From NCBI RefSeq assembly GCF_963545075.1, contig NZ_CAUUHX010000002.1:954-64953 (forward strand): DNA of 64,000 bases, given 5' to 3'. The notes below the pieces were generated by a model. The model was given only the letters and a program-made list of their open reading frames with translations. It was not told where the DNA came from and did no database searches. The translations under genes and the position numbers were made by a program. Within the stretch, counting starts at the first letter, position 1, and each line of letters begins with the position of its first letter. Positions 2-19,426 of the stretch are shown one piece after another. Origin of the DNA: an uncultured Granulicatella sp. Lineage in GTDB: Bacteria; Bacillota; Bacilli; Lactobacillales; Aerococcaceae.

Positions 2-790
2 TAATTTAATATCTTTTGCATACTGATAAGTATTTTGATACCTTTTCCAATCCTCATGAATTTTTGGACTTATCTGAATTGAATTCACCGTCTCTTTATA
101 AATTTTTAATAATGAATACGAATTTCGTTTTAGAGATGTTTGTATCAATGCTTCTAATAAATCAACTTTAGATATGTAACCAGCATGTAGTTTCCATATG
201 ATATATACATCATAAAAATCTCTTGATCGTGTCGTTTGATCCCCTCTTGATAAAATTGTTTCTAATTTTTCAGCTAAAACTGTTTCAAGATTGTATGCCA
301 ACACAGAAATTTTACTTTCACTGAACATCATCGGAAATTGATATTGTATTTCTTTTGGAGTAATTTGATCCCCTGTTGTAATATCAATTTTTAAAGGCGA
401 TGCAATCACTTCATAGTTAGCTATTAAATGAATTCTATACCCATTGTATTCATCATTTTCCCTAATTTCATGAATTGATTTTATTTCAAATTGAATATTA
501 TCTTCTATTGGTATATCTATAATTTCTTTAAACATTAACAATAAATGTTCTTCAGTTAAAGGTTGTCCCTTAATTGTTACATCCATATCCATTGTAGTAC
601 GTGTATCTAATCCGACAATTGATGCAATTAGAAATCCGCCTTTAAGAATTAAATGATTCTTGTAACTAGAATAAGAAATTCGTTCTAAAAAACGTTCTAG
701 AAAATAATTTTGTAACACTAGTTGAGCAGTTATTCCCTTATCTTTAGCAATATTTTTTACTATTGCTTTTAAAGACATTGCATTCTTCAT
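2..790 (-). CDS. AbiEii-family nucleotidyltransferase toxin (type IV TA); 3' end runs off the left window edge
   Basis: Absent from the ORF track because no stop lies in the window. My translation from ATG 790-788: MKNAMSLKAIVKNIAKDKGITAQLVLQNYFLERFLERISYSSYKNHLILKGGFL... ATGA start/stop overlap with the AbiEi ORF upstream. Confidence 0.75.
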   Translation of the reverse strand, partial: MKNAMSLKAIVKNIAKDKGITAQLVLQNYFLERFLERISYSSYKNHLILKGGFLIASIVGLDTRTTMDMDVTIKGQPLTEEHLLLMFKEIIDIPIEDNIQFEIKSIHEIRENDEYNGYRIHLIANYEVIASPLKIDITTGDQITPKEIQYQFPMMFSESKISVLAYNLETVLAEKLETILSRGDQTTRSRDFYDVYIIWKLHAGYISKVDLLEALIQTSLKRNSYSLLKIYKETVNSIQISPKIHEDWKRYQNTYQYAKDIKL

Positions 791-1377
791 AATAACACCT
801 CTAAATAGCTACTGACTTTTTCTTCTACTTTCATGATTTTTGAGTATTCTGATAACAATGGGATATTTTTATCTTTTCTTTTTACATATCGTTTAAATGC
901 TTCTGCTGTTATTCCTATTTCTACTCCACTTCTTAGTCTTAGAATATCGCATAATGTTCTTTCAGCATTGTATGCTATTACACTATTACCAGAAGGTGTT
1001 AAGATTTCTTCTTGTCCTAATTCATACAATTCATTTTTGGTTCGGCTAGCGATGACTCCTTCTTTTTTTACAGTAGTTAAATTATAATCTTCAGGAAATG
1101 TCATTGAATATTGGATTGGTGTTCTATCTGTTAAATCGTACAAATACAATGCTGTTTCTTTAGAATAAATTCCTTTTTTAAAACGTATCTGTAAATGTTG
1201 CATTTCATCTTCCCATATATGGGGAAAGATGTATATTCCTCTTGAAGTTCTTTCTAGTAATCCTTTATCAACTAATTTTTTTAAATATTGTCTTGCGATA
1301 CCATGTTGATCAATCATTTTAGAGGTTACAGTTCCATTATTCTTTTCAGCCATTTGTAAAATTATTTCTTCCGTCAT
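787..1377 (-). CDS. AbiEi-family antitoxin / transcriptional regulator (type IV TA)
   Basis: 196 aa. N-terminal wHTH-like segment MAEKNNGTVTSKMIDQHGIARQYLKKLVDKGLLERTSRGIY. Translationally coupled to the AbiEii ORF. Paralogue at 20312-20911. Confidence 0.8.
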   Translation of the reverse strand: MTEEIILQMAEKNNGTVTSKMIDQHGIARQYLKKLVDKGLLERTSRGIYIFPHIWEDEMQHLQIRFKKGIYSKETALYLYDLTDRTPIQYSMTFPEDYNLTTVKKEGVIASRTKNELYELGQEEILTPSGNSVIAYNAERTLCDILRLRSGVEIGITAEAFKRYVKRKDKNIPLLSEYSKIMKVEEKVSSYLEVLL

Positions 1378-6233: not shown

Positions 6234-6273
6234 AAAAAACTCGCCCAATCGTATGATGCTACGATTGGGCGAG
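6234..6273 (-). terminator. Terminator after the PHP-ATPase gene; approximate left edge of the AT-rich island
   Basis: Minus strand: CTCGCCCAATCG-N10-CGATTGGGCGAG followed by TTTTTTG. Confidence 0.7.
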
Positions 6274-6370
6274 TTTTTCAATAATAGTCATTTAATTTAT
6301 ACTTTTTATGGAGAAGAAGATGAAATCAAGATAATATCTAAAACTATTTTTAATACATTAGAATTACTAC

Positions 6371-8962
6371 TCAATTAGAAAAATTATACTTATTCTCTCT
6401 ATTTTTAAATGCGTCTTCTCCTCCCTCTAATATTTCACATACATGAGTTCTAATACTTTGTTTTTGAAGTAAATATTCAGAGTCAGATATACTAATATCA
6501 TTTTCTAAAGAACCATTTACATAATCAAATTTTTCTCCATCTTGATTTGGTGATTCATCAGAATGTTGGTTAGCAATAATAATATTTTCAGCATCCCCAG
6601 ATACAACTAAGTTTGGATTATGAGTAACTATTATTATTTGACGTTTTAATTTAGTTTCCTTTATATATTTTGTCAACTCATTATAAATAGCTCTATTATC
6701 TAAATTATCTTCTGGTTGGTCAATCAAAACAGGAACTTTGCTATCTGAAAACTCTAAAATCAACTTTAAAACAATGAAAGCTTTTTTACCTGGAGACATT
6801 TGTCTAAATTTGTCCCCTTGATACTCAATCTCAAATTGATAATCAAAGAAATTGGTAGTGAAAAATTTTTCGATATGATGTAATTTATTTTTATTATTTT
6901 TAAATGTTAAAGACTCATCTTCAAATATTGAAGGTATAATATTATCAAAATCACCAATTATTTTATCAAAAAAATTTTGTTTCGAATGACCTCGAGAATC
7001 AATATAGTCAAATTCACTGTCTAAATCTTTTAAAGAGAAGTTAATAGAAATTTTCAAGTTATCCCCATCTTCTATTTTGAATGAATTGGATAGTTCAGAT
7101 CTATACCTAGTATACTCTTTATACTTTGTGATTAAATCCGTTCTAATTTGCTTATTTTCTTTATGAAGTTGTTCTAACCTAGATTCGTATTCATTAATCT
7201 TTTGTAACATATCGTTTTCTTTTTCTATTAAAGAATCCAACTTAGCTATTTCTGAATTTGTCTTTGTTGCCTCTAGACATTTTTTATAAATATCATTATT
7301 TTCAATTTGTAAAATTTCTTGTTCTGTTTTTTGTTTCAATCCCTCTAATTGTAACTTAGCTACCCTAATTTCGTGTTTTTGTTGTGCCCTGACATTATTA
7401 TATAAACGTTCGATAATTTCACCTAGTTTTATACGTAAGCCTACAGAGGGAGATAGTGATTTATCATAACTTTTTAAATCAAAAGTAATAGGCGGAATTG
7501 AGTTAATATACAGTATGTCAGACTCATGATTAATCATTTCTGATTGTAAACGAATCAATTCCGTATTTTTAAGTTCAAAAATATTTCTTTCTTCATCAGT
7601 TATTTTACTATCTTTTAATAACTCTTGTTTCTTAAGTTGATAATCTCTTATCCGATTTTCTGTACCTTGCTTATCTGCTTCAGGTTTTATCAACTCAGAA
7701 TTAGATTTTATGTTAGAAAAATAATTTCGTAGTAAATCACTAATTTCTACCTGTAAATTATTACATTTATTCTCATAATTCTTTAAGTCAAAATCTCTTT
7801 CCTTTGAGCGAATTATATCACTCAATAGATTATTTAATTTACTATTATTTCTAGATAAAGTGAACATATATTCTTGAGGTATATATTCAATTTTCCTTGA
7901 ATTATCTTCTTGTCCATCTCTCCATAAAACATGAAAATCATCTAGATTTTCAAAAGAAAACATACCATCCTCTATACTTCTTCCTAATTTTTTAGCAATA
8001 GAATTTAATAAAGTTGATTTACCAGTTGAACGACCACCAATAATTGTATTCAAATACTCTGAGAGGTAGATATCTTTATTTTTAAAATGAATTCTATCAA
8101 TTATCAATTCATCTTTTTCATGGCAAGGCTTTTCTTTTTCAATACTAATGCGGTACTCAGGTTCAAATTTTATTTGTTTTAAGCCTTCAAAAGTTAAATC
8201 CGCTTTTATCCAAGAGTACTTAGTACCGATTTGTTCAAGCGAATGAGCATCAGATGATTGAAGAACTGGTCTAACATATTTAGAACGTTTAAGCCAATAT
8301 TCTCTATCTTTTTCAAGGTTATTATGCTTACATTTTTTATCATTACAAGATGAAGCATCATTACAACTTGAATGAATTACAAAGTCTGAGTTAAGACAAA
8401 TTTGCTCATACACAGCCATATTTTTAGGGTCAGAGTCACTAGTAGCACTTCCATGGCCTCTTGACAGAAAACCTTTCAAATAACGTCCATTTAGCTCTTC
8501 ATCAGATTCTAAAGATTCAATTAATTTTTCAAAAGAGGTATTTGCGAATTGCTCAATTTCAGAAGAGGTAAGGTTATTAAATGCCTTCTCTTTGGCACCT
8601 ATATTGGCTTTTAGTTGCCCAAGCAAATTTTTTATAATCTTATCAGGTAGTTTATTATCAAATATTATATGATAATCAAAGAAATGACCAGATTTATTGA
8701 TATTGGATAACCTTAATTCAAGATTCAAAAATGTGACTATTCCTTCTTGTTCCAACTTGCTTTTTAAGCTAAAATCTTCATCATTAAAATTGAAATAATT
8801 TGTTAATCCTATTGCTGAAATACCTGCATTTTTTATATTTTCAATAAACTTATCTACATTCGGTTCTCCTCCTGACAGCTTTTCAAATTGATTATTAACT
8901 ACTGTAAAGGGCGAATGTATATGTAGATCCCATTTTCTAAACTCCGAACCTCTTTGAATCAT
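6371..8962 (-). CDS. PHP-domain phosphoesterase fused to a Rad50/SMC-like ABC ATPase (Ppl-like / TrlF-like single-gene defence candidate)
   Basis: 863 aa. PHP motifs WDLHIHSPF and SSDAHS. Walker A GGRSTGKST at about residue 312. About 400 aa of heptad-like coiled coil. ABC signature-like QMSPGKKAF, Walker B VLIDQPEDNLD and H-loop VTHNPN. Confidence 0.7.
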   Translation of the reverse strand: MIQRGSEFRKWDLHIHSPFTVVNNQFEKLSGGEPNVDKFIENIKNAGISAIGLTNYFNFNDEDFSLKSKLEQEGIVTFLNLELRLSNINKSGHFFDYHIIFDNKLPDKIIKNLLGQLKANIGAKEKAFNNLTSSEIEQFANTSFEKLIESLESDEELNGRYLKGFLSRGHGSATSDSDPKNMAVYEQICLNSDFVIHSSCNDASSCNDKKCKHNNLEKDREYWLKRSKYVRPVLQSSDAHSLEQIGTKYSWIKADLTFEGLKQIKFEPEYRISIEKEKPCHEKDELIIDRIHFKNKDIYLSEYLNTIIGGRSTGKSTLLNSIAKKLGRSIEDGMFSFENLDDFHVLWRDGQEDNSRKIEYIPQEYMFTLSRNNSKLNNLLSDIIRSKERDFDLKNYENKCNNLQVEISDLLRNYFSNIKSNSELIKPEADKQGTENRIRDYQLKKQELLKDSKITDEERNIFELKNTELIRLQSEMINHESDILYINSIPPITFDLKSYDKSLSPSVGLRIKLGEIIERLYNNVRAQQKHEIRVAKLQLEGLKQKTEQEILQIENNDIYKKCLEATKTNSEIAKLDSLIEKENDMLQKINEYESRLEQLHKENKQIRTDLITKYKEYTRYRSELSNSFKIEDGDNLKISINFSLKDLDSEFDYIDSRGHSKQNFFDKIIGDFDNIIPSIFEDESLTFKNNKNKLHHIEKFFTTNFFDYQFEIEYQGDKFRQMSPGKKAFIVLKLILEFSDSKVPVLIDQPEDNLDNRAIYNELTKYIKETKLKRQIIIVTHNPNLVVSGDAENIIIANQHSDESPNQDGEKFDYVNGSLENDISISDSEYLLQKQSIRTHVCEILEGGEDAFKNRENKYNFSN

Positions 8963-9433
8963 AAACTAAAAACTCCTCTCTCATCCTAGAATTCTTTCAT
9001 AATATTTTTTCACTATCCTTTTTATTTTAAATGTTTATTTATGAAACTTACAAACTGGCCTCACTATAAAACACTCTAAAAAGACAGTTTCAAGTATTAA
9101 TTTTATAATTTTTTAGAGTCTTACTTATCTTGAAAAGCTAGAATACGTTAAATATCATTGATTAATACATTTTTACAAGGTTAATTTATTTCTTTTTTAT
9201 ATTTTAGATTCCTATATCTTCCTTTTTTAGTTCTTACTTATGAATCGTTTGTAAACTCACTCCCGTTATCTGCTTAAATAATTCTAATAGTAAGTACAAA
9301 TTTTTCTTTTTCATTTACTTACAATCTTAATTATACTCTTTAAATTAAATAATACTAGATTTTTTAGTGACTATTCCTATTTCTTGTATATCGTCATCAT
9401 TCCATTTTTTATTTAACTTCTTATAAAAGAGAA

Positions 9434-9465
9434 TAAAAAAATCGACCTAAAATCTTAAGTCGATT
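9434..9465 (-). terminator. Terminator after the 3-gene helicase/MTase cassette
   Basis: Minus strand: ATCGAC-N12-GTCGAT followed by T7-8, 30 nt after the stop at 9496. Confidence 0.65.
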
Positions 9466-9495
9466 CTTATCACAATAACTTATTGAGTTTAAACA

Positions 9496-10521
9496 CTATT
9501 CCATTGCTCTTACTTTCTCTTCAATAAAGGTAATCTCATTTTTATCTAAACCATATTTTTTATACAATTGTTGGTCTATTTCAGAAATACTTTTAGACCA
9601 ATCAATATCAGAATTTTCTGTAAAATCTTGAATGGGAACATATTTCCATTTAGAAGCGGGATTATCCTGAGTTATTTTTAATACACCTAACATAGTTCGA
9701 GCAAATTTAGTTTTTATATACTTCATAGTATTAATTGCATGTAATTCACTTGTATATTTACCAATTGAAATAAATGTTTGTGTAAAACCGATTAGGGGTT
9801 CCCCTATTAGGGGTGTTGATAAAACTTCACCAATTGCACCAGAACCGTTTGCTTTTGGTAAAATAACTTTAAATTTATCATGAACTTCTGGTTCATTTAT
9901 ATAATCTTTTCTAATCCAATGTTTTACTCTATTCCCCTTAAATCTTCCTAAAACTAAACAATATTCAAAATTATCATTAGGTTTTTCTTCAAAAAAAAGA
10001 ATATTATTTAGAGATTCCAAAACACCTGTACCTACATCATTAGGATGACTTTTAGATAGAATATTTCTTACATTTGGATTTTCATTATGCATTTTTGATG
10101 TAAAACGATAAATACCTTGACCGGTAATTATTGAATCAAGTGTTTCTTTAGTTTTTAACATTACTTTATTAATTATTGAATTTAATTCCCTATATACAGT
10201 AAATATACCAATTTTGTTAAATTCTTTGGTAATATCTCTATATACTATTGCAACTCCACCTTTAATATCAGTGTTTGGAAAAACTAAAGAAGAATTTTGT
10301 TCATAATATGTTACTTTTAAGTGAGAATCATTTAACATTTTTTCATTCCATTTTTTATCAGTACTACCTGCATTAAATAAAAATCTACCTGGTGATATTA
10401 GTATATAAATTGGAGAAATAGTTTCTGCTAAATCATAAAAATAATTATAAATTGAATCATCTCTAGTATCAACTTTCGATTCTTGAAACGGTGGATTACC
10501 TACTACAACATCAAATTTCAT
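9496..10521 (-). CDS. C-terminal half of an Eco57I-like gamma-class N6-adenine DNA methyltransferase (catalytic NPPF motif + TRD-like region)
   Basis: 341 aa, starting directly at MKFDVVVGNPPFQ (motif IV). FPNTDIKGGVAIVYRD and the C-terminal IDQQLYKKYGLDKNEITFIEEKV are typical of this MTase family. No AdoMet-binding motif I is present in this ORF. Confidence 0.75.
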   Translation of the reverse strand: MKFDVVVGNPPFQESKVDTRDDSIYNYFYDLAETISPIYILISPGRFLFNAGSTDKKWNEKMLNDSHLKVTYYEQNSSLVFPNTDIKGGVAIVYRDITKEFNKIGIFTVYRELNSIINKVMLKTKETLDSIITGQGIYRFTSKMHNENPNVRNILSKSHPNDVGTGVLESLNNILFFEEKPNDNFEYCLVLGRFKGNRVKHWIRKDYINEPEVHDKFKVILPKANGSGAIGEVLSTPLIGEPLIGFTQTFISIGKYTSELHAINTMKYIKTKFARTMLGVLKITQDNPASKWKYVPIQDFTENSDIDWSKSISEIDQQLYKKYGLDKNEITFIEEKVRAME

Positions 10522-13500
10522 TTTTCTTTCCCTCCAAATAATTCATCACATTTTTCTTCAAAGTTACCCTGTCCCATTGCATAAGGCGTAGTATCTAAAT
10601 GTACTATATGAGAATCATTAAATTGTTTTGCAACTTTATCAAATCCAAAAATAAAGTTTCTTGCTATATTGTATATAATTTCAGTTGGAGCAAAACCATA
10701 TACCTGATTTTCTAAAATATGTTTTATTCTATCATTTTCATTTGGAATTTCAGATTCAAGACCTTTAAATAGTCTTTTTACAATTTCAGTGATATATAAT
10801 CCTGATTTCATATATAAATCTGCAAATGTCTTACTTGAATCCTTAAAAATTGACGGATTTTCTTCTTCTAATTTATCAACCATCATTTTAACTACATTTT
10901 TAGGAGTAAAAATTTGATTTGTTTTTTGTGGTGGAATATAGTCAAAAATATCTTCCTCTTGAGATTCATCGAAGTAATTTGCTAATTCCTCACGTTTTCT
11001 TAAAAATTCTTGTACAGATTCATCAAATACAATCGGATCAAAGAATTGATACGTATCTCTTAAAATACGAAATTGTTCTAATGAAATACCTGTAACATCT
11101 TTGAACACCTCATCCTTAATGGTAACGTCAAATGTACTTAATGTTGTCGTTTCTTCACCATAAGCCATTAAGAACGAAGGAATTGTACGTGTGAATCCTC
11201 TCAATCTTGCACGAATCTCATCTTCAACTGTATCTTTTTTCTTTTCTTCTGCACGTTGAATTATTTGTTGAGTCGTTTGTTGTGGAATTTCTTTTGTTTT
11301 TTCTTCCACAGTCTGTTTCACAGTTTCTTTGAACTGTTCATTAGCTTCTTGACGTTTTACTTCGTACGATTGAATAATTTCTTCAATTTTCTCTGGTTGA
11401 TGGGCAAACTTTTTCTTTTCTTGATTCATTTCTGCAATTAATTCATTTTGCTTAATACGATGATTTTCTTCAATAACACGTACTTCTTGTGCAATTTCAA
11501 AAGCTTGTTTTTTAACAATTTGTTCTGCAACTTTTGCACTTAAACCAACTTCTTGAGCAATTGTTTTTGCAGCTTCTTGTGTGGTTTCTTGAATGGTGTT
11601 TTCAATTACTTTTGATAATTCAGATGTTGTTTTGTTTTTTGTCACTTCATCATTAGTAGATGTTAAGTCGTCTAATGATTCAACGATATCAGTATAAACT
11701 TTCGTACCAAAGTGCGCATTTGTTTTTGCAATTACAATTTCTGTATCAGCAACTGCATTTCCCTCTTCGTCTACTTGAACATTTTTTAGATTAATCTCAG
11801 ACTTCTTATGATTTGGCATACTTTCGCCTTTTCCAGATGGATTCATTTGCTCAAGGATTTCTCTTGCTGCTGGTGAAGTAAAGATACCAGAAATATTTTG
11901 GAATAATAAGTTAGACATAAATCCACGCTTAACAACTTCTTTTGCTTTTATAGATTTTGGAATTGTTAATACTTTATCAACATCTAATGGAATCATTTTA
12001 CCATCAGTATCTTCAGCGATAACTGGGAAGAAGTTAAGAAGTTCTCGAATATTCTCTCTTCGTTCTTCTGTCGTTCCATTTCCATTTGCAGTACTAATCG
12101 CAAGATTATTCGCAAATTCATCATAAATCATTAATGTACGTTCTGGAGCAAAATCAAACACATAGGCATTCTCTTTTCTACGAACTTCTCCATTTACTTC
12201 ATATTCCCATGGATTTTGAGCACGAAAAGCTGCTTGCATATAAAGACTTGAAGATTGCATATTGGACAACATTAATACTGCCGTCCATTCTGGAATCGTA
12301 ACGCCTGTTGTTAATTGTCCTACAGATAATGTAATAGTTTTATCATGAATTTCAATCGCTTTTTTCACACGATTAAATGATTTCTCATTCTTTTTATCTT
12401 CATCATCAAATGATTTACCATCCCCTGCAGCAAGTACTACCTCATATTGTTCAAATACAGGGTGATTATTTAAGAGTTTCTTCAATGCTCTTACACTATC
12501 TACTCGATTCAATAACCAAAATGTATGTTTTAATTCTTGTCTTAACTCTTTTGTCGAAAAAGGATATTTCTCATTACGAGCTAGAGTGTCTAACCATTTT
12601 AGAATATCTTTTTCATGAACAAACTTTCCGGTTTCATTCGTTTCAAAAAATTCATTTAAATCAAAAGCATAATCAATATTTGTACCATCTAATTGAGCTC
12701 CTTGATTTACTTCATCCGTTATCATTGCACTCATTTGATAAGAGAACATATTTAATTTTGGTAACTTAATATAAGGATTGTTTTGTTCTAATCCAGAATC
12801 CCATTCAGTTTTTGCTTTTTGTTCATCTGAATATGTCCAATTATAAATTTGTTCTTCACTAAATTGTCCTGAACCAAGTTGTTTGAATGGTGTTCCTGAT
12901 AAATGAAGCGTATGATTTCTTTGAATATTTCTAAACGCCACATCTGTTTTTAATGTATCTACACCTTCATGTGCTTCATCAATTACTAGTAAATCCCACT
13001 TAGTATCTTTTACCCATTTTAATTTTGAATATCCTCCACCAAAATGAATTGATCCTTTTAGATCTTGAAGTGAAATAAATGATATAAGTTTAGCTTTCTC
13101 ATCTTTTTTTGCTATATCAATAAATTCATCATGACTTAATGTTTTTCGATCCTTTAATGATTCTGATGTTGATACAAATAGAAAATCAGATTGCCAAGAA
13201 ATAAATTTTTCAAAATCATCAAACCATGAATTCGCAATAGCTGGACGATTGGTTACAATTAATATACTACTAAATTCCATTTGTCTAATTAAATCATAAG
13301 TGGTCAAAGTTTTTCCAAAACGTGGTTTTGCATTCCATAAAAACTCTGATTTTGAATTCTCTTTAAAATAATTAATTGTTTTTTCTACTGCATCTTTTTG
13401 TTCCTTACGTAACTCATAATCAGTTGTATCTTTTTCTTGATTGTAATCATGATTTCTAAAATCATTAAAATCCATATATGCTTTTTCTGGAGTACCATTA

Positions 13501-13805
13501 TAATAAAACCATTCTGAATTTGGTTCTCTTTTAACTTCTTTAAATTTCGTTAAATAAGCATGTAGTTGATGATCTGTAAAGTATTTATTTTCTTGAGAAA
13601 ACTTAGCAGGTTCTGCCCATAATTTTTCATACTGTAGTCTTATAGCTGCAGTATGAACTTGTTCTTTAATTCTCTCATCAACATCTTGTCTAGTCGTATA
13701 ACCAATTTTAATCCAACCATCTTTTTCAGGAATAGTTGGTAATGTATATGCATAAATTTGAGGATAAATTTCTTTGGTTGTTTGTATTTTAGTGTTATCA
13801 ATCAT
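10518..13805 (-). CDS. Fusion protein: T5orf172/GIY-YIG-like domain + SF2 (ResIII/SNF2-like) helicase + charged linker + N-terminal lobe of an N6A methyltransferase
   Basis: 1095 aa. T5orf172-like: IYAYTLP..GWIKIGYTTRQDVDERIKEQ..NSEWFYY. Helicase motifs: AKPRFGKT, LLVIDEAHEG, LHLSGTPF, QAAFRAQNPW. K/E/Q-rich region at about residues 700-880. MTase N-lobe: IFTPKNVVKMMVDKL, FADLYMKSGLYITEIV, VYGFAPTEIIYNIAR. Confidence 0.7.
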   Translation of the reverse strand: MIDNTKIQTTKEIYPQIYAYTLPTIPEKDGWIKIGYTTRQDVDERIKEQVHTAAIRLQYEKLWAEPAKFSQENKYFTDHQLHAYLTKFKEVKREPNSEWFYYNGTPEKAYMDFNDFRNHDYNQEKDTTDYELRKEQKDAVEKTINYFKENSKSEFLWNAKPRFGKTLTTYDLIRQMEFSSILIVTNRPAIANSWFDDFEKFISWQSDFLFVSTSESLKDRKTLSHDEFIDIAKKDEKAKLISFISLQDLKGSIHFGGGYSKLKWVKDTKWDLLVIDEAHEGVDTLKTDVAFRNIQRNHTLHLSGTPFKQLGSGQFSEEQIYNWTYSDEQKAKTEWDSGLEQNNPYIKLPKLNMFSYQMSAMITDEVNQGAQLDGTNIDYAFDLNEFFETNETGKFVHEKDILKWLDTLARNEKYPFSTKELRQELKHTFWLLNRVDSVRALKKLLNNHPVFEQYEVVLAAGDGKSFDDEDKKNEKSFNRVKKAIEIHDKTITLSVGQLTTGVTIPEWTAVLMLSNMQSSSLYMQAAFRAQNPWEYEVNGEVRRKENAYVFDFAPERTLMIYDEFANNLAISTANGNGTTEERRENIRELLNFFPVIAEDTDGKMIPLDVDKVLTIPKSIKAKEVVKRGFMSNLLFQNISGIFTSPAAREILEQMNPSGKGESMPNHKKSEINLKNVQVDEEGNAVADTEIVIAKTNAHFGTKVYTDIVESLDDLTSTNDEVTKNKTTSELSKVIENTIQETTQEAAKTIAQEVGLSAKVAEQIVKKQAFEIAQEVRVIEENHRIKQNELIAEMNQEKKKFAHQPEKIEEIIQSYEVKRQEANEQFKETVKQTVEEKTKEIPQQTTQQIIQRAEEKKKDTVEDEIRARLRGFTRTIPSFLMAYGEETTTLSTFDVTIKDEVFKDVTGISLEQFRILRDTYQFFDPIVFDESVQEFLRKREELANYFDESQEEDIFDYIPPQKTNQIFTPKNVVKMMVDKLEEENPSIFKDSSKTFADLYMKSGLYITEIVKRLFKGLESEIPNENDRIKHILENQVYGFAPTEIIYNIARNFIFGFDKVAKQFNDSHIVHLDTTPYAMGQGNFEEKCDELFGGKEK

Positions 13806-14713
13806 TATTTTAACCCCTTGTCAAAGTATTCCATTTTATTTGTTTCCCAATTCATGATTTTTACACGTTTACCAGGAATTACTTCAAATTCTCCACTTAT
13901 TTCATCATCAAATAATGATAGTTGATAATTCTCAATTCGTTCAATTCTTTCAGATAGAGGAATAATATATTTTAATCCATCCATTTGAAAAACATTATAA
14001 CTAATAATATTTGCAATTCGTAAAAATAGACTTAGTAAAGGTTCTTCATTCCACTTATCTACGTAATAATCTCGATAAGTGTATAACAAGTTTTCTCTAG
14101 CTAATAATAAAGAATCTCCACTCCACTCAAACCCATAACTAGATTGAAAAGCTAACTCGACAAGTCTTTGCCACTCCGCTTTATCTGAAACTTCTTTATT
14201 AATCCTTCTTAATTTTCTATCAACAAAACCTACTCTATCTTCCAGTGGAATTAGTTCTCCAGTTTCCATTTCATAACGAGATACCATATAAGGAGCTTCA
14301 CCACAAGTAATTTCTAACCATTTTCTTGAAACGTATTTTTCTAAAGAATCATCCGTATAGTTTTCATCCACTGCATCATTTTGCTTTTTTACAATCCAAC
14401 TTGGAGTAAAAACTTCAGCTTTAGACTTTGTACGTTCTTTCTTTAAATCATTTGATTTTAGTGCTCTAGGTTTAATCAAATCATCCATAGTTCCTGTAAT
14501 TAAATCAGCAGTAATTTGTGCTGTTGGTGCATATTGTTTGAAACCATATTTTTGATAGTTGTCATTTGCCCATATGATATTGTTTATTTTTTTAGGAGTT
14601 GAAGTTGTTCTATCGATTAATAGAATATCTAGAATTTCAGGCATAGAATTTCTAATATTTTCTTCAGAAATATCTATCATAAAATCTAACTTTTTTTCAT
14701 CCAAAATGTTCAC
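13805..14713 (-). CDS. MTase-fold-like protein without a canonical (D/N)PP(Y/F) motif; function unknown
   Basis: 302 aa. AEVFTPSWIVKKQND (motif X-like), EITCGEAPYMVSRY at the motif I position and SYGFEWSGDSLLLAREN. NVFQMDG sits where NPPY would be expected. 1-nt TAATG overlap with the next ORF. Confidence 0.45.
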   Translation of the reverse strand: MNILDEKKLDFMIDISEENIRNSMPEILDILLIDRTTSTPKKINNIIWANDNYQKYGFKQYAPTAQITADLITGTMDDLIKPRALKSNDLKKERTKSKAEVFTPSWIVKKQNDAVDENYTDDSLEKYVSRKWLEITCGEAPYMVSRYEMETGELIPLEDRVGFVDRKLRRINKEVSDKAEWQRLVELAFQSSYGFEWSGDSLLLARENLLYTYRDYYVDKWNEEPLLSLFLRIANIISYNVFQMDGLKYIIPLSERIERIENYQLSLFDDEISGEFEVIPGKRVKIMNWETNKMEYFDKGLK

Positions 14714-14795
14714 TCCTTCTTAGGTTTACTCATAGTTATTATAGCATATTTAACAGAATAAGTTATGGGTGGAATGTATATCAAAATAGATTTAC

Positions 14796-14833
14796 AAAAA
14801 AATCAGTTAAAGCAATCTATAACTTTAACTGAT
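14796..14833 (-). terminator. Terminator separating SIR2-HerA from the helicase/MTase cassette
   Basis: Minus strand: ATCAGTTAAAG-N10-CTTTAACTGAT followed by T7. Confidence 0.65.
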
Positions 14834-15046
14834 TTTGGAAATTTGATTCAAAGATGAATTGTAAAATGAAGTACAATAAAAACATAACTATCTGATACAC
14901 TTAAATAGACTTAATCAAAGTCGATTTTAAGTGACATAACCTTTTATTATTTGTAACATTTAAGATTGTCAATTCACATAATAAAATTATATCATAGAGA
15001 TTTCTTTTTAAACCAATATTTATAAAAAATACTAAAATTCTATTAT

Positions 15047-16903
15047 TCAATCTGTTACTTGAGTATCATTTGCCCAAATATCTGTTAAAACAACATCATC
15101 ACTAGTTGGTCTAATTTTTTTCTCTCTATCAATTTTAACAAATACTGGAACCATCATAGATTGTCCTGTAATAATAGTTTCCCCTTTTCCTAGACTAGAT
15201 ATCATCTGATATGAATTTCTATCTAAAGTTGGCATAGCATTTTCAAGCATTCTCAAGTCTTTTTCATTTACAATTCGATGAATCAGATAGTTATGAATCT
15301 GAGACATTATTGTTGGAGAAATATCGGAGGGACGTTGACTTGATAGAGTTAGATAAAAACCAAATTTTCGTCCTTCTTTAATAATTTCCTCGAAAATTGA
15401 CAAACGATAATCTTGCCAATCATCTCCAATATTACTATAAACAGAATTCAGGATATTGTGTGCTTCGTCAATAATGAGATGCTTAGTTTTAGTCACATTT
15501 TTACCTGCTACACTTGATTTATGTTCATCATAAATCATTTTTGAAAGTAACATTGGTATTAAACGTCTAATTTCTTGGTTAGAATGAACAAGTGATATAA
15601 TATTAAATGTTTTATAGTAAGATGAAATATCTGGAACCACTTCTACTACTTTACTTAAACTATTTAATGATGTATTTATTCTATTAAATAATGGTATTAT
15701 ATGCTCACGATTAACCTTATCCCATGCTGTTCGATGCTCTTTATTAAAATCCAAAAACATTTCAAGTCTATCAATAGGACTTTCGACATGATTATATGCT
15801 TCATTTAAACCAGTACTAATTTCAGATAATTTTATTTCCTCCAATAATTCATTGACAACAGCTCCGGTTGCACCTACATTAAAAAAATTTCCTTTAGCTG
15901 TAAAATAACATTGATTTTTTGAATGGTATTGTATTTTCTCAATTTCCGAAAATACTTCATAACTACCTTTAAAATATTTTTTTGAAGTCTCTATCCAACT
16001 CTCTAAACTACTTTGATTAGTAGAGTTTCCTGTTGTTAAAATCTTCTTTAGTGTTCCAGTCACAAACTCTCCGAAATTAAAATTAAGTTTTTTGGATTTT
16101 TCCATGTATAATTTTAAAGCTTGTCTCAAAAAAGGTACTTGAGTAGCAGGTCTAGCATCAAAAAGTATTGATAAAATATCAGAATTAAATAGATATTCTT
16201 CTTTGATTGGTAATTTGATACCTTTATTATTTCTTGTGTCTATTTCGATAATTAACTTATTTTCATTCTGAAGTCCGAACATTTCACCTCCAGTATATTC
16301 ACCATTAAAATCAATAAGGAAAAATTGAGATTTTTTTAAAATTGAATATTTAAATTCACTCTTAAATAGTTCTAAATACAATTTATGTAATGTATTCGAC
16401 TTACCACTCCCAGTATTCCCAAAGATTCCGATATGAGAAGCAAAAAAATTATTTATTGGGATTCGAAGATGCTCTCCTTCAATAATTGATTTTCCAATGT
16501 AGATTGAATTTGATTCGGAATCAACCCCATAAATTATTTTTAATTCTTCTTTTGTAGTTAATGTTATTTCATTTCCTATCATTGGACAATATTTACTTGT
16601 TAATGTAAATTTATTTCCTTCTATAACTCCTTTTGTCTTTAATGTTAAAATTCTTTTTACTGTTCCCTTGCTAAATCTATTATCAAAAACTTCACTTTTA
16701 ACATTATTTTGAGTATCAATTATTTTTTCACTAGTTACTGAAGCGATAATCTTTATATCATTCTGGTTAATAGTTAAATACGCACCCACTCTTGGTCCTG
16801 TTAAAATTTCACCCCTCCAGATATACTCAACATCATTGATTAAACTATACATACCAACTTGTGATGAATCTCCATCAACAGCAAATTTTTTTTGAAATTT
16901 CAA
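15047..16903 (-). CDS. herA: HerA-like (DUF87) ATPase of a SIR2-HerA defence pair
   Basis: 618 aa. Walker A GNTGSGKSNT, Walker B HLIIDEAHNIL, and the LTLSSQRPSDISPTIMSQIHNYLIHRI arginine-finger region. The ORF-track start is TTG, overlapping the SIR2 stop (TTGA), so the exact start is uncertain. Confidence 0.8.
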   Translation of the reverse strand: MKFQKKFAVDGDSSQVGMYSLINDVEYIWRGEILTGPRVGAYLTINQNDIKIIASVTSEKIIDTQNNVKSEVFDNRFSKGTVKRILTLKTKGVIEGNKFTLTSKYCPMIGNEITLTTKEELKIIYGVDSESNSIYIGKSIIEGEHLRIPINNFFASHIGIFGNTGSGKSNTLHKLYLELFKSEFKYSILKKSQFFLIDFNGEYTGGEMFGLQNENKLIIEIDTRNNKGIKLPIKEEYLFNSDILSILFDARPATQVPFLRQALKLYMEKSKKLNFNFGEFVTGTLKKILTTGNSTNQSSLESWIETSKKYFKGSYEVFSEIEKIQYHSKNQCYFTAKGNFFNVGATGAVVNELLEEIKLSEISTGLNEAYNHVESPIDRLEMFLDFNKEHRTAWDKVNREHIIPLFNRINTSLNSLSKVVEVVPDISSYYKTFNIISLVHSNQEIRRLIPMLLSKMIYDEHKSSVAGKNVTKTKHLIIDEAHNILNSVYSNIGDDWQDYRLSIFEEIIKEGRKFGFYLTLSSQRPSDISPTIMSQIHNYLIHRIVNEKDLRMLENAMPTLDRNSYQMISSLGKGETIITGQSMMVPVFVKIDREKKIRPTSDDVVLTDIWANDTQVTD

Positions 16904-17889
16904 TCATTAAAATCAGCCTCATTTTCTTCGATATTTAGTAGAGTTGTTAAATTTTTTATTGTAAAATATGGAACAGAATTAGTATCTAATGAAAAAATTT
17001 CTTTTCCAAAATCTTTAGGAATTAAAATTTTACAATTTAAATTTTCGGAAATATTCTTCAAATTACCCATAATTCTCTCTTTATCCTCGGTATTATAGGC
17101 AAAAATATATATCATTAACTCAGGATTCAAACATGCTCTTCGTATCATTTTAGCAATATGACTATCTTGAAATGAAAATCCAATAACAAATAAAACAGAT
17201 TGAGGTTTATCAAGTTCCAATTGAAATACTCTTAACATCTCATGAAAATGATCATTTAAAAAAGTTTCTTGTTGTTCATATCCGGTAGGGGGTACAACAA
17301 CTGGATTATCTAAAACAAAATTATTTACTTTAATAAAATTCGAATTTTTAAATTCAATTTTTTCCCAATTTACAGATCCATGGGGCTTAATTAACAAAAT
17401 ACAAGGGATTTCATTGATATAATTATCATTTAATCCTTTATAGGAAGCAGTGCTATTATAATTTGAACTATCTAATATACGATTAAAATATCCTCGACTT
17501 CCGTCATTAAAAATGAAATAGTTTTTTTGTTGTTGAATATCTATCGCTTTTTCAATAAATAAGTCATAGTTTGTTGTAAATATATTTATATTTTTTGGAG
17601 TTTGACGTGAATTTGAATAATTTAGTAATTGTATAATACTCAATATAAAACGTTCATAATTTTGAATGGTTTCTAAGATATCAGTATCTTTTTGTATTGC
17701 TTCCTCACCATTTAAAATTATATTACTCTTTTCTTTAACTCTCTTCAGTAATGCATCATTCCTATTTTCTTCACTATAATCACTCATTAATGAAATAGCT
17801 GGTAATGAAGCTCCCGATCCAATTAAAAAATTAAGTTGTTTAGTAATTGCTAATTTACGAATAGTTTTTACTATATCTTTTTCACCCAT
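16900..17889 (-). CDS. SIR2-family NADase-like protein (SIR2-HerA defence pair)
   Basis: 329 aa. FLIGSGASLPAI (GxGxS NAD pocket), TTNYD and KPHGSVNW, typical of SIR2_2 defence proteins. Coupled to herA. Confidence 0.8.
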   Translation of the reverse strand: MGEKDIVKTIRKLAITKQLNFLIGSGASLPAISLMSDYSEENRNDALLKRVKEKSNIILNGEEAIQKDTDILETIQNYERFILSIIQLLNYSNSRQTPKNINIFTTNYDLFIEKAIDIQQQKNYFIFNDGSRGYFNRILDSSNYNSTASYKGLNDNYINEIPCILLIKPHGSVNWEKIEFKNSNFIKVNNFVLDNPVVVPPTGYEQQETFLNDHFHEMLRVFQLELDKPQSVLFVIGFSFQDSHIAKMIRRACLNPELMIYIFAYNTEDKERIMGNLKNISENLNCKILIPKDFGKEIFSLDTNSVPYFTIKNLTTLLNIEENEADFND

Positions 17890-18058: not shown

Positions 18059-19186
18059 TTACTCCCCAAACGTCAAGCCGCCCTTAATCTTCTCTTCCGC
18101 TATTTTCATCTGCTTTATCAACTCATCGATAATAGCATCATAGCTAAAGTCTTCAATCTTCCAATATTGGTAACAATGGCAATACTTTGCTGCAACGTTA
18201 CCATATTTGCAATAATTATTTCTCATTTTAGAAGTGAGATTTTGCTTTTCGATTTCTTCTGCGAAGTTTCTCTTGAAGTAATTACATTCGTATAATTTCT
18301 CAATCACTACTTTCTCATGATAATTGCCTTCTTGCGAAGCTCCTCCATAAATTCTGAATTGGTCGCCTTCTATTTGTACGCCAATCATCCCAATTTCTTT
18401 TGTTGGATCCCCATCGATTCTTTGTGAGAACACGATACTTAGAGTTGGTTTCTTATGGTTAAAACTGAGTCCACAGACTGGTTTTGCCCAATCTTTGTAA
18501 GGTTTGAATGTTAGTCGTTTATTAATTTCTTCCATGAATTCTGAACCTTTTAGTTTGACATAAATATCTGAATAACGGATTTTTTCTAAGTCTTTGTCTC
18601 CAATAATGTATTCCCCTTTATTTTGCTCCATTTTGCTTTGGAATAAGTCATAGAGTACTTCGATGTCTTCTGCATATTGCTTAATATAGTCTGCAAAATC
18701 CATTGTAGCGTGTTGTTGTTGGATATTTTGAATTCGTGTTGCTATTTCTTGGTAACTTAAGAATGACCATGTACCTAACTCTTGAATATCTAATGAGGCA
18801 TATAAACCTGTTAGTATTCCTGTGATGGCTATGTCTTGTTTTCCTAATTCTTCTTCATATCTCATCAATTGTTCTTTTGTTGGAATGGACTTGATTTTAT
18901 TTTCGATAATGAGTACTTCAGTAATATTGGCTTTGTTTTTATACGTAATCGTTAAATCCACATGTTTCTTTTCTCGTTCGACTGAGACGAATGTACATCC
19001 TTTTTGATAAAAATCAGGGATAAATACTTCGATAAATGGATGTTTTCCTTCTACTTCTTGTTCGAGTAACCATGCCCAAAAATTAGAATGAGATAATTCC
19101 TTCCCACTTAATGAAATCGCAAATAATGGGGAACGATTTAGTCTTTGTAATTGTTCTTCTATGATGCTCGTTGTTTTCTTTTTCAT
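18059..19186 (-). CDS. PD-(D/E)xK nuclease family protein (PDDEXK_4-like N-terminal domain, uncharacterised C-terminal half)
   Basis: The ORF track begins at 19258. The ATG at 19186 (MKKKTTSIIEE) has an AAGGA RBS 9 nt upstream. Motifs: LSHSNFWAWLLEQE, then HVDLTI...VLIIENKIKS (D...ExK). Confidence 0.65.
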   Translation of the reverse strand: MKKKTTSIIEEQLQRLNRSPLFAISLSGKELSHSNFWAWLLEQEVEGKHPFIEVFIPDFYQKGCTFVSVEREKKHVDLTITYKNKANITEVLIIENKIKSIPTKEQLMRYEEELGKQDIAITGILTGLYASLDIQELGTWSFLSYQEIATRIQNIQQQHATMDFADYIKQYAEDIEVLYDLFQSKMEQNKGEYIIGDKDLEKIRYSDIYVKLKGSEFMEEINKRLTFKPYKDWAKPVCGLSFNHKKPTLSIVFSQRIDGDPTKEIGMIGVQIEGDQFRIYGGASQEGNYHEKVVIEKLYECNYFKRNFAEEIEKQNLTSKMRNNYCKYGNVAAKYCHCYQYWKIEDFSYDAIIDELIKQMKIAEEKIKGGLTFGE

Positions 19187-19426
19187 GTTATTATCCTTTA
19201 ACTTTGTTAGTACCTTAACGTTAACATAGTCGATATTTGATTTCAATGCATGATGCAAAGATTAGATTCCAGTAATATTTCTTATTTTCCTCTTTATGAG
19301 TGATGTCAAAGTATGGTTTATAGTTATTATTCAACTAGTACTACAACTTTCCCAAATTTCTTCTGTGCATATTCCGACTATTTACGATACAATAAACGTG
19401 AAAATACCAATGGAGGTAGTGTTAAT

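Follow-up and report, generated by a model that had tools for sequence, protein, structure and literature searches.

A cassette of three overlapping minus-strand genes, termed A, B and C, lies within a 64,000-nucleotide stretch of contig NZ_CAUUHX010000002.1 from an uncultured Granulicatella sp. (the window) and very probably encodes a defence of the restriction-modification (RM) type with a truly split methylase. It is suggested, with a probability of roughly 0.4, that the cassette represents an undescribed class of ATP-dependent RM in which the half-methylase C completes a Rossmann fold in trans with either of two S-adenosylmethionine (AdoMet)-binding halves, one being protein A and the other the tail of protein B. 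The proposal that C serves A for modification and B for restriction has about an even chance of being correct. The reading of C as a shared half is drawn from the conservation of both AdoMet-binding N-lobes, the fusion of C to either partner, the retention of a start codon at the head of C and the cassette-like variation of C.

According to this model, C would hold strands beta-4 to beta-7 of a gamma-class N6-adenine methylase together with the NPPF catalytic loop and the target-recognition domain (TRD) and, as carrier of the TRD, would set the DNA sequence read by the system. A and C together would make up an enzyme for modification alone, by which host DNA is marked, and the pairing of the B tail with C would tether a T5orf172 nuclease and a superfamily 2 (SF2) DEAH translocase to the same recognition site, so that an unmethylated site would set off ATP-driven translocation and, as with Type ISP or Type III enzymes, the DNA would then be cleaved. 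A swap of the C gene would change modification and restriction specificity together, the balance between the two activities would be set by competition of A and B for C, and fused versions would keep the scheme by way of a conserved internal translation start that gives free C. Which of the pairs methylates, the translocation and the mode of cleavage are inferred.

The methylase halves in C, B and A

Gene C begins exactly at the catalytic strand (motif IV) MKFDVVVGNPPF, and protein C alone matches only positions 73-171 of the 171 of the Pfam Eco57I profile, over C residues 1-81. When the B tail is joined to C, the full Eco57I profile is matched (positions 1-171, 7.5e-18) and the N6_Mtase match runs across the junction, which indicates a single gamma-class N6-adenine methylase fold with its cut between motifs III and IV. 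Given that beta-1 to beta-3 are missing from C, it is predicted not to bind AdoMet alone. An initial annotation of the sequence had placed the division of the fold between B and C exactly before motif IV and had read the domain order as nuclease, helicase, methylase and TRD; the first claim is borne out by the complete profile match upon joining, and the second holds when B is read and then C. Among PADLOC models, C matches MTase_II (PDLC03375, 4.4e-36) and the C-terminal part of REase_MTase_IIG (PDLC03626).

The conservation of B was assessed with 93 representatives of 50%-identity clusters and with a 33-sequence alignment at 34-61% identity to B. In the alignment of B relatives, tail residues T967, P968, D996, K1000, S1001, G1002 and P1040 are at least 84% conserved. 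The T5orf172/GIY-YIG-type nuclease in place of Mrr and the SF2 helicase that the initial annotation had assigned to B were both recovered in profile checks for PF10544 and PF04851: the T5orf172 match is above the Pfam cut-off, and ResIII matches residues 130-307 at 6.6e-16. In the 33 homologues the T5orf172 residues Y18, G30, K33 and G35 do not vary and R45 and E98 reach at least 90% conservation; Y18, K33, G35, R45 and E98 are also conserved among the 93 representatives. All helicase motifs are conserved across 94 aligned sequences and in the 33-sequence alignment. T5orf172 domains have been shown by experiment to cut DNA in phage ICP1 (PMC8263062) and count among the nuclease domains listed for N6-adenine RM systems (PMC4738411); the T5orf172 domain of B is a putative nuclease. 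No PD-(D/E)xK nuclease was found in B by profile search. The linker between the helicase and the N-lobe is poorly conserved (column conservation 0.18), has only weak coiled-coil-type PADLOC matches and is probably a coiled coil. Searches of B against chains of the PDB (phmmer at E <= 1; the 33-sequence profile at E <= 0.1) gave only weak UvrB and XPD matches, sequence searches of the PDB with A and with a construct of the B tail and C (phmmer, profiles) gave no useful matches, and no NCBIfam model matched A, B or C.

Protein A is of a type termed here long A, in which the AdoMet-binding half stands between an N-terminal extension of about 95 aa and a beta-rich tail of some 50 aa, and has no NPPY. 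In some relatives the corresponding protein is a short A of 230-248 aa, encoded just upstream of a fused B-C gene (Enterococcus faecalis plasmid pL8, Lactococcus lactis plasmid pCV56A), with canonical motifs (EVFTPK, EPAAGEGAF, YGIE, NGNFL) and likewise no NPPY. The pL8 short A (248 aa) matches positions 23-120 of 311 of N6_Mtase and 21-118 of 259 of MmeI_Mtase, that is, the N-half only, and when short A is joined to its own C module the Eco57I match extends over positions 3-171 (2.1e-19) and the N6_Mtase match, now spanning the junction, gains in score from 28.9 to 46 bits. Short A is homologous to the A of the window (BLASTP 8e-8 over A residues 92-241) and matches both the hidden Markov model of the A family (7e-10) and PADLOC model PDLC03390 (1.2e-8), an 'MTase_II' model that the A of the window matches at 1.1e-83. 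Across 38 homologues, residues E196 and D245 of A are invariant and E134 nearly so; by our own reading these three are taken to align with the AdoMet-contact positions E45, E71 and D89 of M.TaqI. Because A is homologous to short A, an N-half-only methylase, and keeps these acidic residues, it is, as judged from sequence, a second AdoMet-binding half without a catalytic half, a paralogous N-lobe only. The initial annotation had taken A for a third methylase-like protein; instead it is this N-lobe alone, with no motif IV.

Short A proteins (228-248 aa) replace long A in some lineages, including enterococcal and dairy lactococcal plasmids, and pL8 carries optrA and erm(A). The NCBI names of the three proteins are generic: 'restriction endonuclease' for A, 'DEAD/DEAH box helicase family protein' for B and 'Eco57I restriction-modification methylase domain-containing protein' for C. 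Within the A family they disagree ('restriction endonuclease', 'Type II restriction endonuclease', 'restriction endonuclease subunit M', 'N-6 DNA methylase', 'hypothetical protein'). The identity of A as a restriction endonuclease was rejected, given the absence of a nuclease motif or profile match and the clear homology to methylase N-halves.

Natural fusions of A to C provide a view of the first proposed pair. An AlphaFold2 (AF2) model of one A-C fusion, built from a 57-sequence alignment, has a mean confidence (pLDDT) of 82.9, its A part running beta-alpha-beta-alpha-beta and its C part supplying beta-4 to beta-7. Foldseek comparison of this model with the PDB returned whole gamma-class methylases, namely BrxX/PglX, CamA, DrdV and MmeI, with E values down to 1.4e-6, and A-C fusions are thus predicted by the model to fold as whole methylases.

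Arrangements in relatives and the exchange of C

A word-index search found at least 8000 candidate relatives of B, all at E <= 1e-5, and 775 clusters at 50% identity with E < 1e-30 among the matches listed; the cassette is therefore no rarity. In the closest 120 clusters of B relatives, 117 are split proteins of about 1085 aa and 3 are fused, and 93 diverse near-full-length representatives comprise 48 split and 45 fused. A scan of one genome per species gave 62 loci in Bacillota, Moraxellaceae, Actinomycetota, Bacteroidota, Verrucomicrobiota, Saccharibacteria, Chloroflexota and one archaeal metagenome-assembled genome (MAG), and 85 plasmid records carry relatives. Arrangements were counted in the 50 loci with usable context, of which 30 are split, 15 have B fused to C and 5 have A fused to C, followed by B. 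The split loci follow the order A, B, C with long A (27 loci), the same order with short A (2) or the order A, C, B with short A (1); fused B-C genes have A upstream or downstream (14) or, at a contig end, no A in view (1); the A-C fusions measure 669-717 aa, and one more, beyond the five counted, lies at a contig end. An adjacent A gene is lacking in only two cases, both at contig ends; one is the B-C fusion just mentioned and the other, L038, shows B alone and is left out of this breakdown by arrangement. All three modules are present in 48 of the 50 loci, with the fold cut between motifs III and IV, and the two exceptions end at a contig edge. The linkage of the three genes described in the initial annotation extends across many phyla.

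The junctions of B and C in split loci vary (ATGA, TAATG, TAATAATG, short gaps), and in some lineages C lies upstream of B. The A-C fusions are a diversified family (49-100% identity), and fused B-C relatives still have a separate A gene. Where C is upstream of B or fused to A, the tail of B keeps all N-lobe motifs and the same end point, with conservation of 55-56% in the tail, 57-61% in the helicase core and 27-33% in the linker.

A translation start is kept at the head of the C module in fused genes. All 21 fused genes examined retain an ATG or GTG within a few codons of it, most of them with a strong Shine-Dalgarno-like sequence upstream; among 17 B-C fused genes an ATG stands right before KFD..GNPPY in 15, a GTG in 1 and an ATG one codon earlier in 1, and in A-C fusions the ATG is right before KFD or 5 codons before. 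The Shine-Dalgarno (SD) pairing energy ahead of this start averages -6.6 kcal/mol, as against about -1 to -3 for other in-frame internal ATGs, and is the strongest of the gene in 13 of the 21. The weakest signals at this position are those of two Bacteroidota genes and four Moraxellaceae genes; Bacteroidota make little use of SD sequences. These features fit a yield of free C from an internal start in fused genes.

Variation in C follows a different course from that of its partners. Split loci compared with the window have an A that is 57-74% identical and a helicase half of B that is 58-69% identical, and the identity of the TRD of C (21-70%) is unrelated to these values; the same range of TRD identity is seen among loci whose A and B are 57-96% identical. 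The C-terminal helices of C mostly stay similar, also where the TRD has diverged: of 26 loci, 23 have at least 51% identity here and 14 reach 71-78%, and the remaining three (L002, L007, L009) fall to 22-29%. In a Granulicatella MAG (L002), A is 96% and B 95% identical to that of the window, C is only 26-36% identical, and either flank of the cassette, that of ferrochelatase included, has DNA of 88-93% identity. Similarity to L002 at the DNA level breaks off at window position 10480, about 40 nt into C and just past the GNPPFQ codons, and this breakpoint suggests recombination at the conserved 5' end of C. On this comparison C behaves as a swappable specificity cassette, whose alleles are exchanged between systems that are otherwise 95% identical. 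Replacement extends as one block over C and the TrlF-like gene beyond it (window 6273-10480, L002 11326-17519).

Several further observations concern the relatives. Lineages and carriers include lactic-acid bacteria, enterococcal and lactococcal plasmids (one with optrA), Moraxellaceae, Saccharibacteria (candidate phyla radiation) and an archaeal MAG. Three fused proteins (P0261, P0285, P0287; 1470-1534 aa) have an internal N-lobe that is short-A-like (GEGxF ... YG[IL]E ... QGDxL) and not of the KSG type of the B tail, which may reflect an evolutionary swap of the two kinds of N-lobe. The A-C fusions, for example L032 1806-3941 at residues about 280-340, have a Cys-rich insert (CHDY...C...C..C...H...C) between the A and C parts, which could be a zinc-binding element and is not found in the A of the window. 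Disrupted or truncated copies of B (frameshifts, partial genes) in L052, L053, L059, L061 and L063 indicate that the system also decays in some genomes. Two unannotated metagenomic contigs from human faeces labelled 'Bacteriophage sp.' (MT835780.1, MT835565.1) encode B homologues, with 51% and 35% identity respectively, that may be prophage-borne copies or mis-binned DNA.

Gene layout and neighbourhood

The features of the cassette are collected in Table 1. The three minus-strand frames are present as the initial annotation had them, and their proposed translational coupling is supported by overlapping junctions, each with an SD 8-9 nt upstream of the start: TAATG with a 1-nt overlap between A and B, read with AAGGGG upstream, and ATGA with a 4-nt overlap between B and C. 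The in-frame TTG is the more likely start of gene A, since it sits 8 nt after AAGGAG, the listed GTG overlaps that same SD, and homologues of A and gene calls agree on 299 aa. The terminators claimed on both sides of the cassette fold strongly in comparison with shuffled controls, the upstream hairpin at -16.7 kcal/mol (z = -6.35) and the downstream one, which a terminator scan also detects, at -14.8 kcal/mol (z = -4.2).

Table 1. Cassette features, with positions in the window, and short A genes of other loci, with positions in those loci
Feature	Position	Strand	Details
Gene A	13805..14704	-	299 aa from TTG 14704; 302 aa if GTG 14713 (open reading frame 13805-14713)
Gene B	10518..13805	-	1095 aa; T5orf172 nuclease, SF2 helicase, linker, methylase N-lobe
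Gene C	9496..10521	-	341 aa; methylase catalytic half and TRD; proposed shared specificity subunit
T5orf172 domain (GIY-YIG superfamily)	13500..13757	-	B residues 17-102; Pfam PF10544 24.3 bits, cut-off 20
SF2 helicase/translocase core	12126..13418	-	B residues 130-560; AKPRFGKT (Walker A), DEAHEG, SGTPF, TTGVT, QAAFRAQ
E/K/Q-rich linker	11226..11840	-	B residues ~656-860; E 16%, K 13%, Q 9%
Methylase N-lobe	10521..10928	-	B residues ~960-1095; QIFTPK, FADLYMKSGLY, VYGFAPTE, HLDTT; ends just before beta-4
AdoMet-binding half-Rossmann region of A	13964..14428	-	EVFTP (X), LEITCGEAPY (I-like), YGFE (II), NVFQMDGL (III)
Catalytic half-Rossmann region of C	10207..10521	-	C residues 1-105; begins MKFDVVVGNPPFQ (motif IV)
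Variable target-recognition region of C	9652..10206	-	C residues ~106-290
C-terminal helices of C	9499..9651	-	C residues 291-341 (DIDWSKSI..EID.QLYKKYGL)
SD of gene C, GGAGGG	10530..10535	-	encoded within Gly-Gly codons of B
Putative extended -10, TGcTATAAT	14738..14746	-	promoter-like, ahead of gene A; consensus match only
Intrinsic terminator of upstream SIR2-HerA operon	14794..14836	-	15-bp stem then U-run; insulates the 5' side of the cassette
Intrinsic terminator after gene C	9433..9473	-	terminator scan and folding
Short A gene, L066	4262-5008		
Short A gene, L067	2824-3516		
Short A genes, L034, L040, L041, L045, L062			upstream of B

The cassette lies within a low-GC stretch (GC 0.26-0.30 over about 6-18 kb of the window) that is a defence island, with a TrlF-family ATPase, SIR2-HerA and a PDDEXK_4/PDC-S26 gene as its neighbours. 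The initial annotation had set it between a Ppl-like gene and SIR2-HerA; the latter stands, and the former is a TrlF-family gene (6371-8962, minus strand, 863 aa, downstream of the cassette) that matches NCBIfam NF045780 above cut-off at 5.3e-158 and whose Ppl likeness is weak (107 bits against a cut-off of 1000). On contig L001, which carries an identical cassette, this TrlF-like gene appears as two calls, of 74 and 785 aa, that lie in different frames, and may be a frameshift variant. Directly upstream, the SIR2-HerA pair (15047-17889, minus strand) overlaps by 4 nt and matches PADLOC HerA at 1.8e-258 and SIR2 at 5.1e-138. A PD-(D/E)XK_4 protein (18059-19258, minus strand; PADLOC candidate PDC-S26, 2.4e-12) marks the far edge of the low-GC island, and an open reading frame at 787-1377 (minus strand) is AbiEi_4 antitoxin-like, according to the gene calls of L001, with an AbiEii partner that runs off the start of the window.

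Alternative explanations and comparison with known systems

Several points weigh against C as a half shared by two partners. Pfam sees no domain in A, nor an N-lobe in long A even when it is joined to C. An AF2 model of A alone (38-sequence alignment) reached a pLDDT of only 61.5 and gave no Foldseek match in the PDB below E = 0.9, and when the profiles of long A and the B tail were compared, motif X alone could be aligned (19 columns, probability 55%), so that direct paralogy of A to the B tail is not established and the link runs via short A. In place of the common GxG of motif I, A has GEA and the B tail has KSG, and for this reason AdoMet binding by either is a prediction. For the A-C fusion model, Foldseek gave alignment lengths, which span the whole fusion protein, rather than ranges, and the adjacency of A-part and C-part strands is presumed. 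The start codons and SD sequences inside fused genes could be left over from overlapping genes that fused recently and repeatedly. Finally, the physical pairing of C with A and with B is a deduction.

It is somewhat unlikely that B and C are the sole enzyme, a two-chain bifunctional RM of Type ISP-like kind, with A as an accessory such as a regulator, a DNA-binding or methylation-sensing protein or an assembly factor. Such a role for A would accord with the Pfam result, by which the B tail and C form a complete domain and long A with C is not recognised, with the degenerate motif I of long A and its extra N- and C-terminal regions without assigned function, and with the classical Type ISP enzymes, which need no separate methylase (PMC3553950). 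However, motif I of short A is canonical (EPAAGEGAF) and this protein, a half-fold and nothing more, cannot work alone, A-C fusions are abundant and are modelled as whole methylases, and in the A-C-fused lineage the same logic would leave the conserved N-lobe of B without a role. That the cassette is an epigenetic or relic system, methylating without restricting, is improbable. This has been proposed for Bacillus subtilis DnmA-YeeB-YeeC, which has the same domain inventory and gave no restriction or phage protection in the assays reported (PMC9973331), a precedent that also weighs against a shared half serving restriction. Against a relic stand the intactness of all three genes, the conservation of nuclease and ATPase catalytic residues over 34-61% identity, the shuffling of C alleles as in active RM systems, the spread of the family on plasmids and its place in defence islands, and the altered phage sensitivity caused by Vibrio homologues of DnmA-YeeB (PMC9973331).

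A BREX-like (bacteriophage exclusion) defence by methylation without cleavage, with T5orf172 as a DNA-binding module and a helicase that blocks replication of unmodified DNA, is more doubtful still. T5orf172 is also discussed as a DNA-binding derivative of the GIY-YIG fold, and the structures closest to the methylase, as represented by the A-C fusion model, are BrxX/PglX of BREX. The GIY-YIG-type residues Y18, R45 and E98 are nevertheless at least 90% conserved, PglZ, BrxC and BrxL were not detected among the neighbours profile-scanned on both sides, and the ICP1 nucleases show that T5orf172 domains can be active (PMC8263062). Given that one extra A in an A5 run at the B/C junction would fuse the frames, and that fused homologues exist, the split could in principle be a frameshift, pseudogene or sequencing artefact of a single Type IIG-like gene. 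This is very improbable and was rejected on comparative data: 117 of the closest 120 clusters are split, as are 30 of the 50 loci, from many phyla and with differing junctions, the junction has a strong SD, and a frameshift cannot give the arrangement of some lineages in which C lies upstream of B.

If the proposal of C as a shared half is correct, this would be the first natural N6-adenine methylase fold assembled in trans from alternative partners; to our knowledge no other is known. It would be a new way for an RM system to hold both activities on one specificity while controlling their balance, and a natural template for split-methylase tools. The cassette would also explain unassigned N6-methyladenine motifs in the methylomes of dairy and clinical Firmicutes and identify a barrier to transformation and phage therapy. 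The family is large, yet it is inconsistently annotated and not recognised as a system by PADLOC. No description of it was found in the literature covered, which left out REBASE and most subscription journals, and we could find there neither a split N6-adenine methylase fold nor two alternative N-lobes for one catalytic and TRD subunit. In agreement with the initial annotation, which had matched the cassette to no catalogued system, the PADLOC 2.0 scan matched no system: A and C gave only 'MTase_II', C also the tail of the IIG model, and B nothing at E <= 0.01.

DnmA(YeeA)-YeeB-YeeC resembles the cassette in that an N6-adenine methylase of MmeI/Eco57I type, an SF2 helicase and a T5orf172 protein are encoded in one operon within defence islands (PMC9973331). 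That system, compared here by domain inventory and not by sequence, has a whole methylase and separate helicase and T5orf172 proteins, whereas the cassette joins nuclease, helicase and half a methylase in one chain and has two N-lobes. MANTIS/Gao_RL is a methylation-based defence in which asymmetric sites are hemimethylated and the effector is a helicase-nuclease; it comprises an AAA+ protein MtsA, MtsB, a whole methylase MtsC and a PLD-nuclease helicase MtsD (bioRxiv 10.64898/2026.09.23.753747). Identity with it was rejected, since the proteins differ and the nuclease is of PLD type. The methylase and TRD belong to the same family as those of Type IIG/IIL enzymes and PglX (Eco57I, PDLC03626, PDLC03375, Foldseek matches to MmeI and DrdV). 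However, Eco57I, MmeI, DrdV and BrxX have an undivided methylase domain, Type IIG/IIL enzymes lack a helicase such as the conserved SF2 DEAH helicase found here and their nuclease, where present, is PD-ExK, and BREX has PglZ, BrxC and BrxL, none of which appeared in the PADLOC scan of the neighbours (TrlF-like, SIR2-HerA, PDDEXK_4).

The likeness to Type ISP enzymes (LlaGI, LlaBIII) noted in the initial annotation holds as an analogy of architecture, in the order nuclease, SF2 ATPase, coupler or spacer, gamma-class N6-adenine methylase and TRD, and does not extend to a detectable sequence relation: LlaGI and LlaBIII, which are solved structures and presumably among the PDB chains searched, were hit neither by phmmer with B (E <= 1) nor by the 33-sequence profile (E <= 0.1). 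Hosts are likewise lactic-acid bacteria and the genes are often plasmid-borne. By analogy, the logic of an asymmetric site, methylation of one strand and translocation before cleavage (PMC3553950) is likely to be common to both. Nevertheless, Type ISP enzymes are single polypeptides with an Mrr/PD-(D/E)xK nuclease, an undivided methylase and no extra N-lobe, whereas here there are three genes, of which A stays separate even in fused B-C relatives, an N-terminal nuclease domain of T5orf172/GIY-YIG type, a methylase that is split or, if fused, keeps an internal start codon, and the additional N-lobe module A.

Naturally split methylases made of two polypeptides occur among the C5-cytosine enzymes (M.AquI, M.EcoHK31I). 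Each of these has one partner, and we know of none with two alternative partners or a link to a motor and nuclease. Type III enzymes have a beta-class Mod and a Res with PD-ExK C-terminal to the helicase, whereas the cassette matches only the generic ResIII profile, has an N-terminal T5orf172 nuclease domain and follows the gamma motif order X-I-II-III-IV. In Type I and Type III systems one specificity module serves both modification and restriction complexes (M2S and R2M2S; Mod2 and Mod2Res), and swapping it changes specificity. Those systems share whole folded subunits by docking; by analogy, the module shared here would be half a catalytic fold with its TRD, completed in trans. In summary, the A/B/C cassette is a widespread, uncharacterised variant of ATP-dependent restriction-modification.

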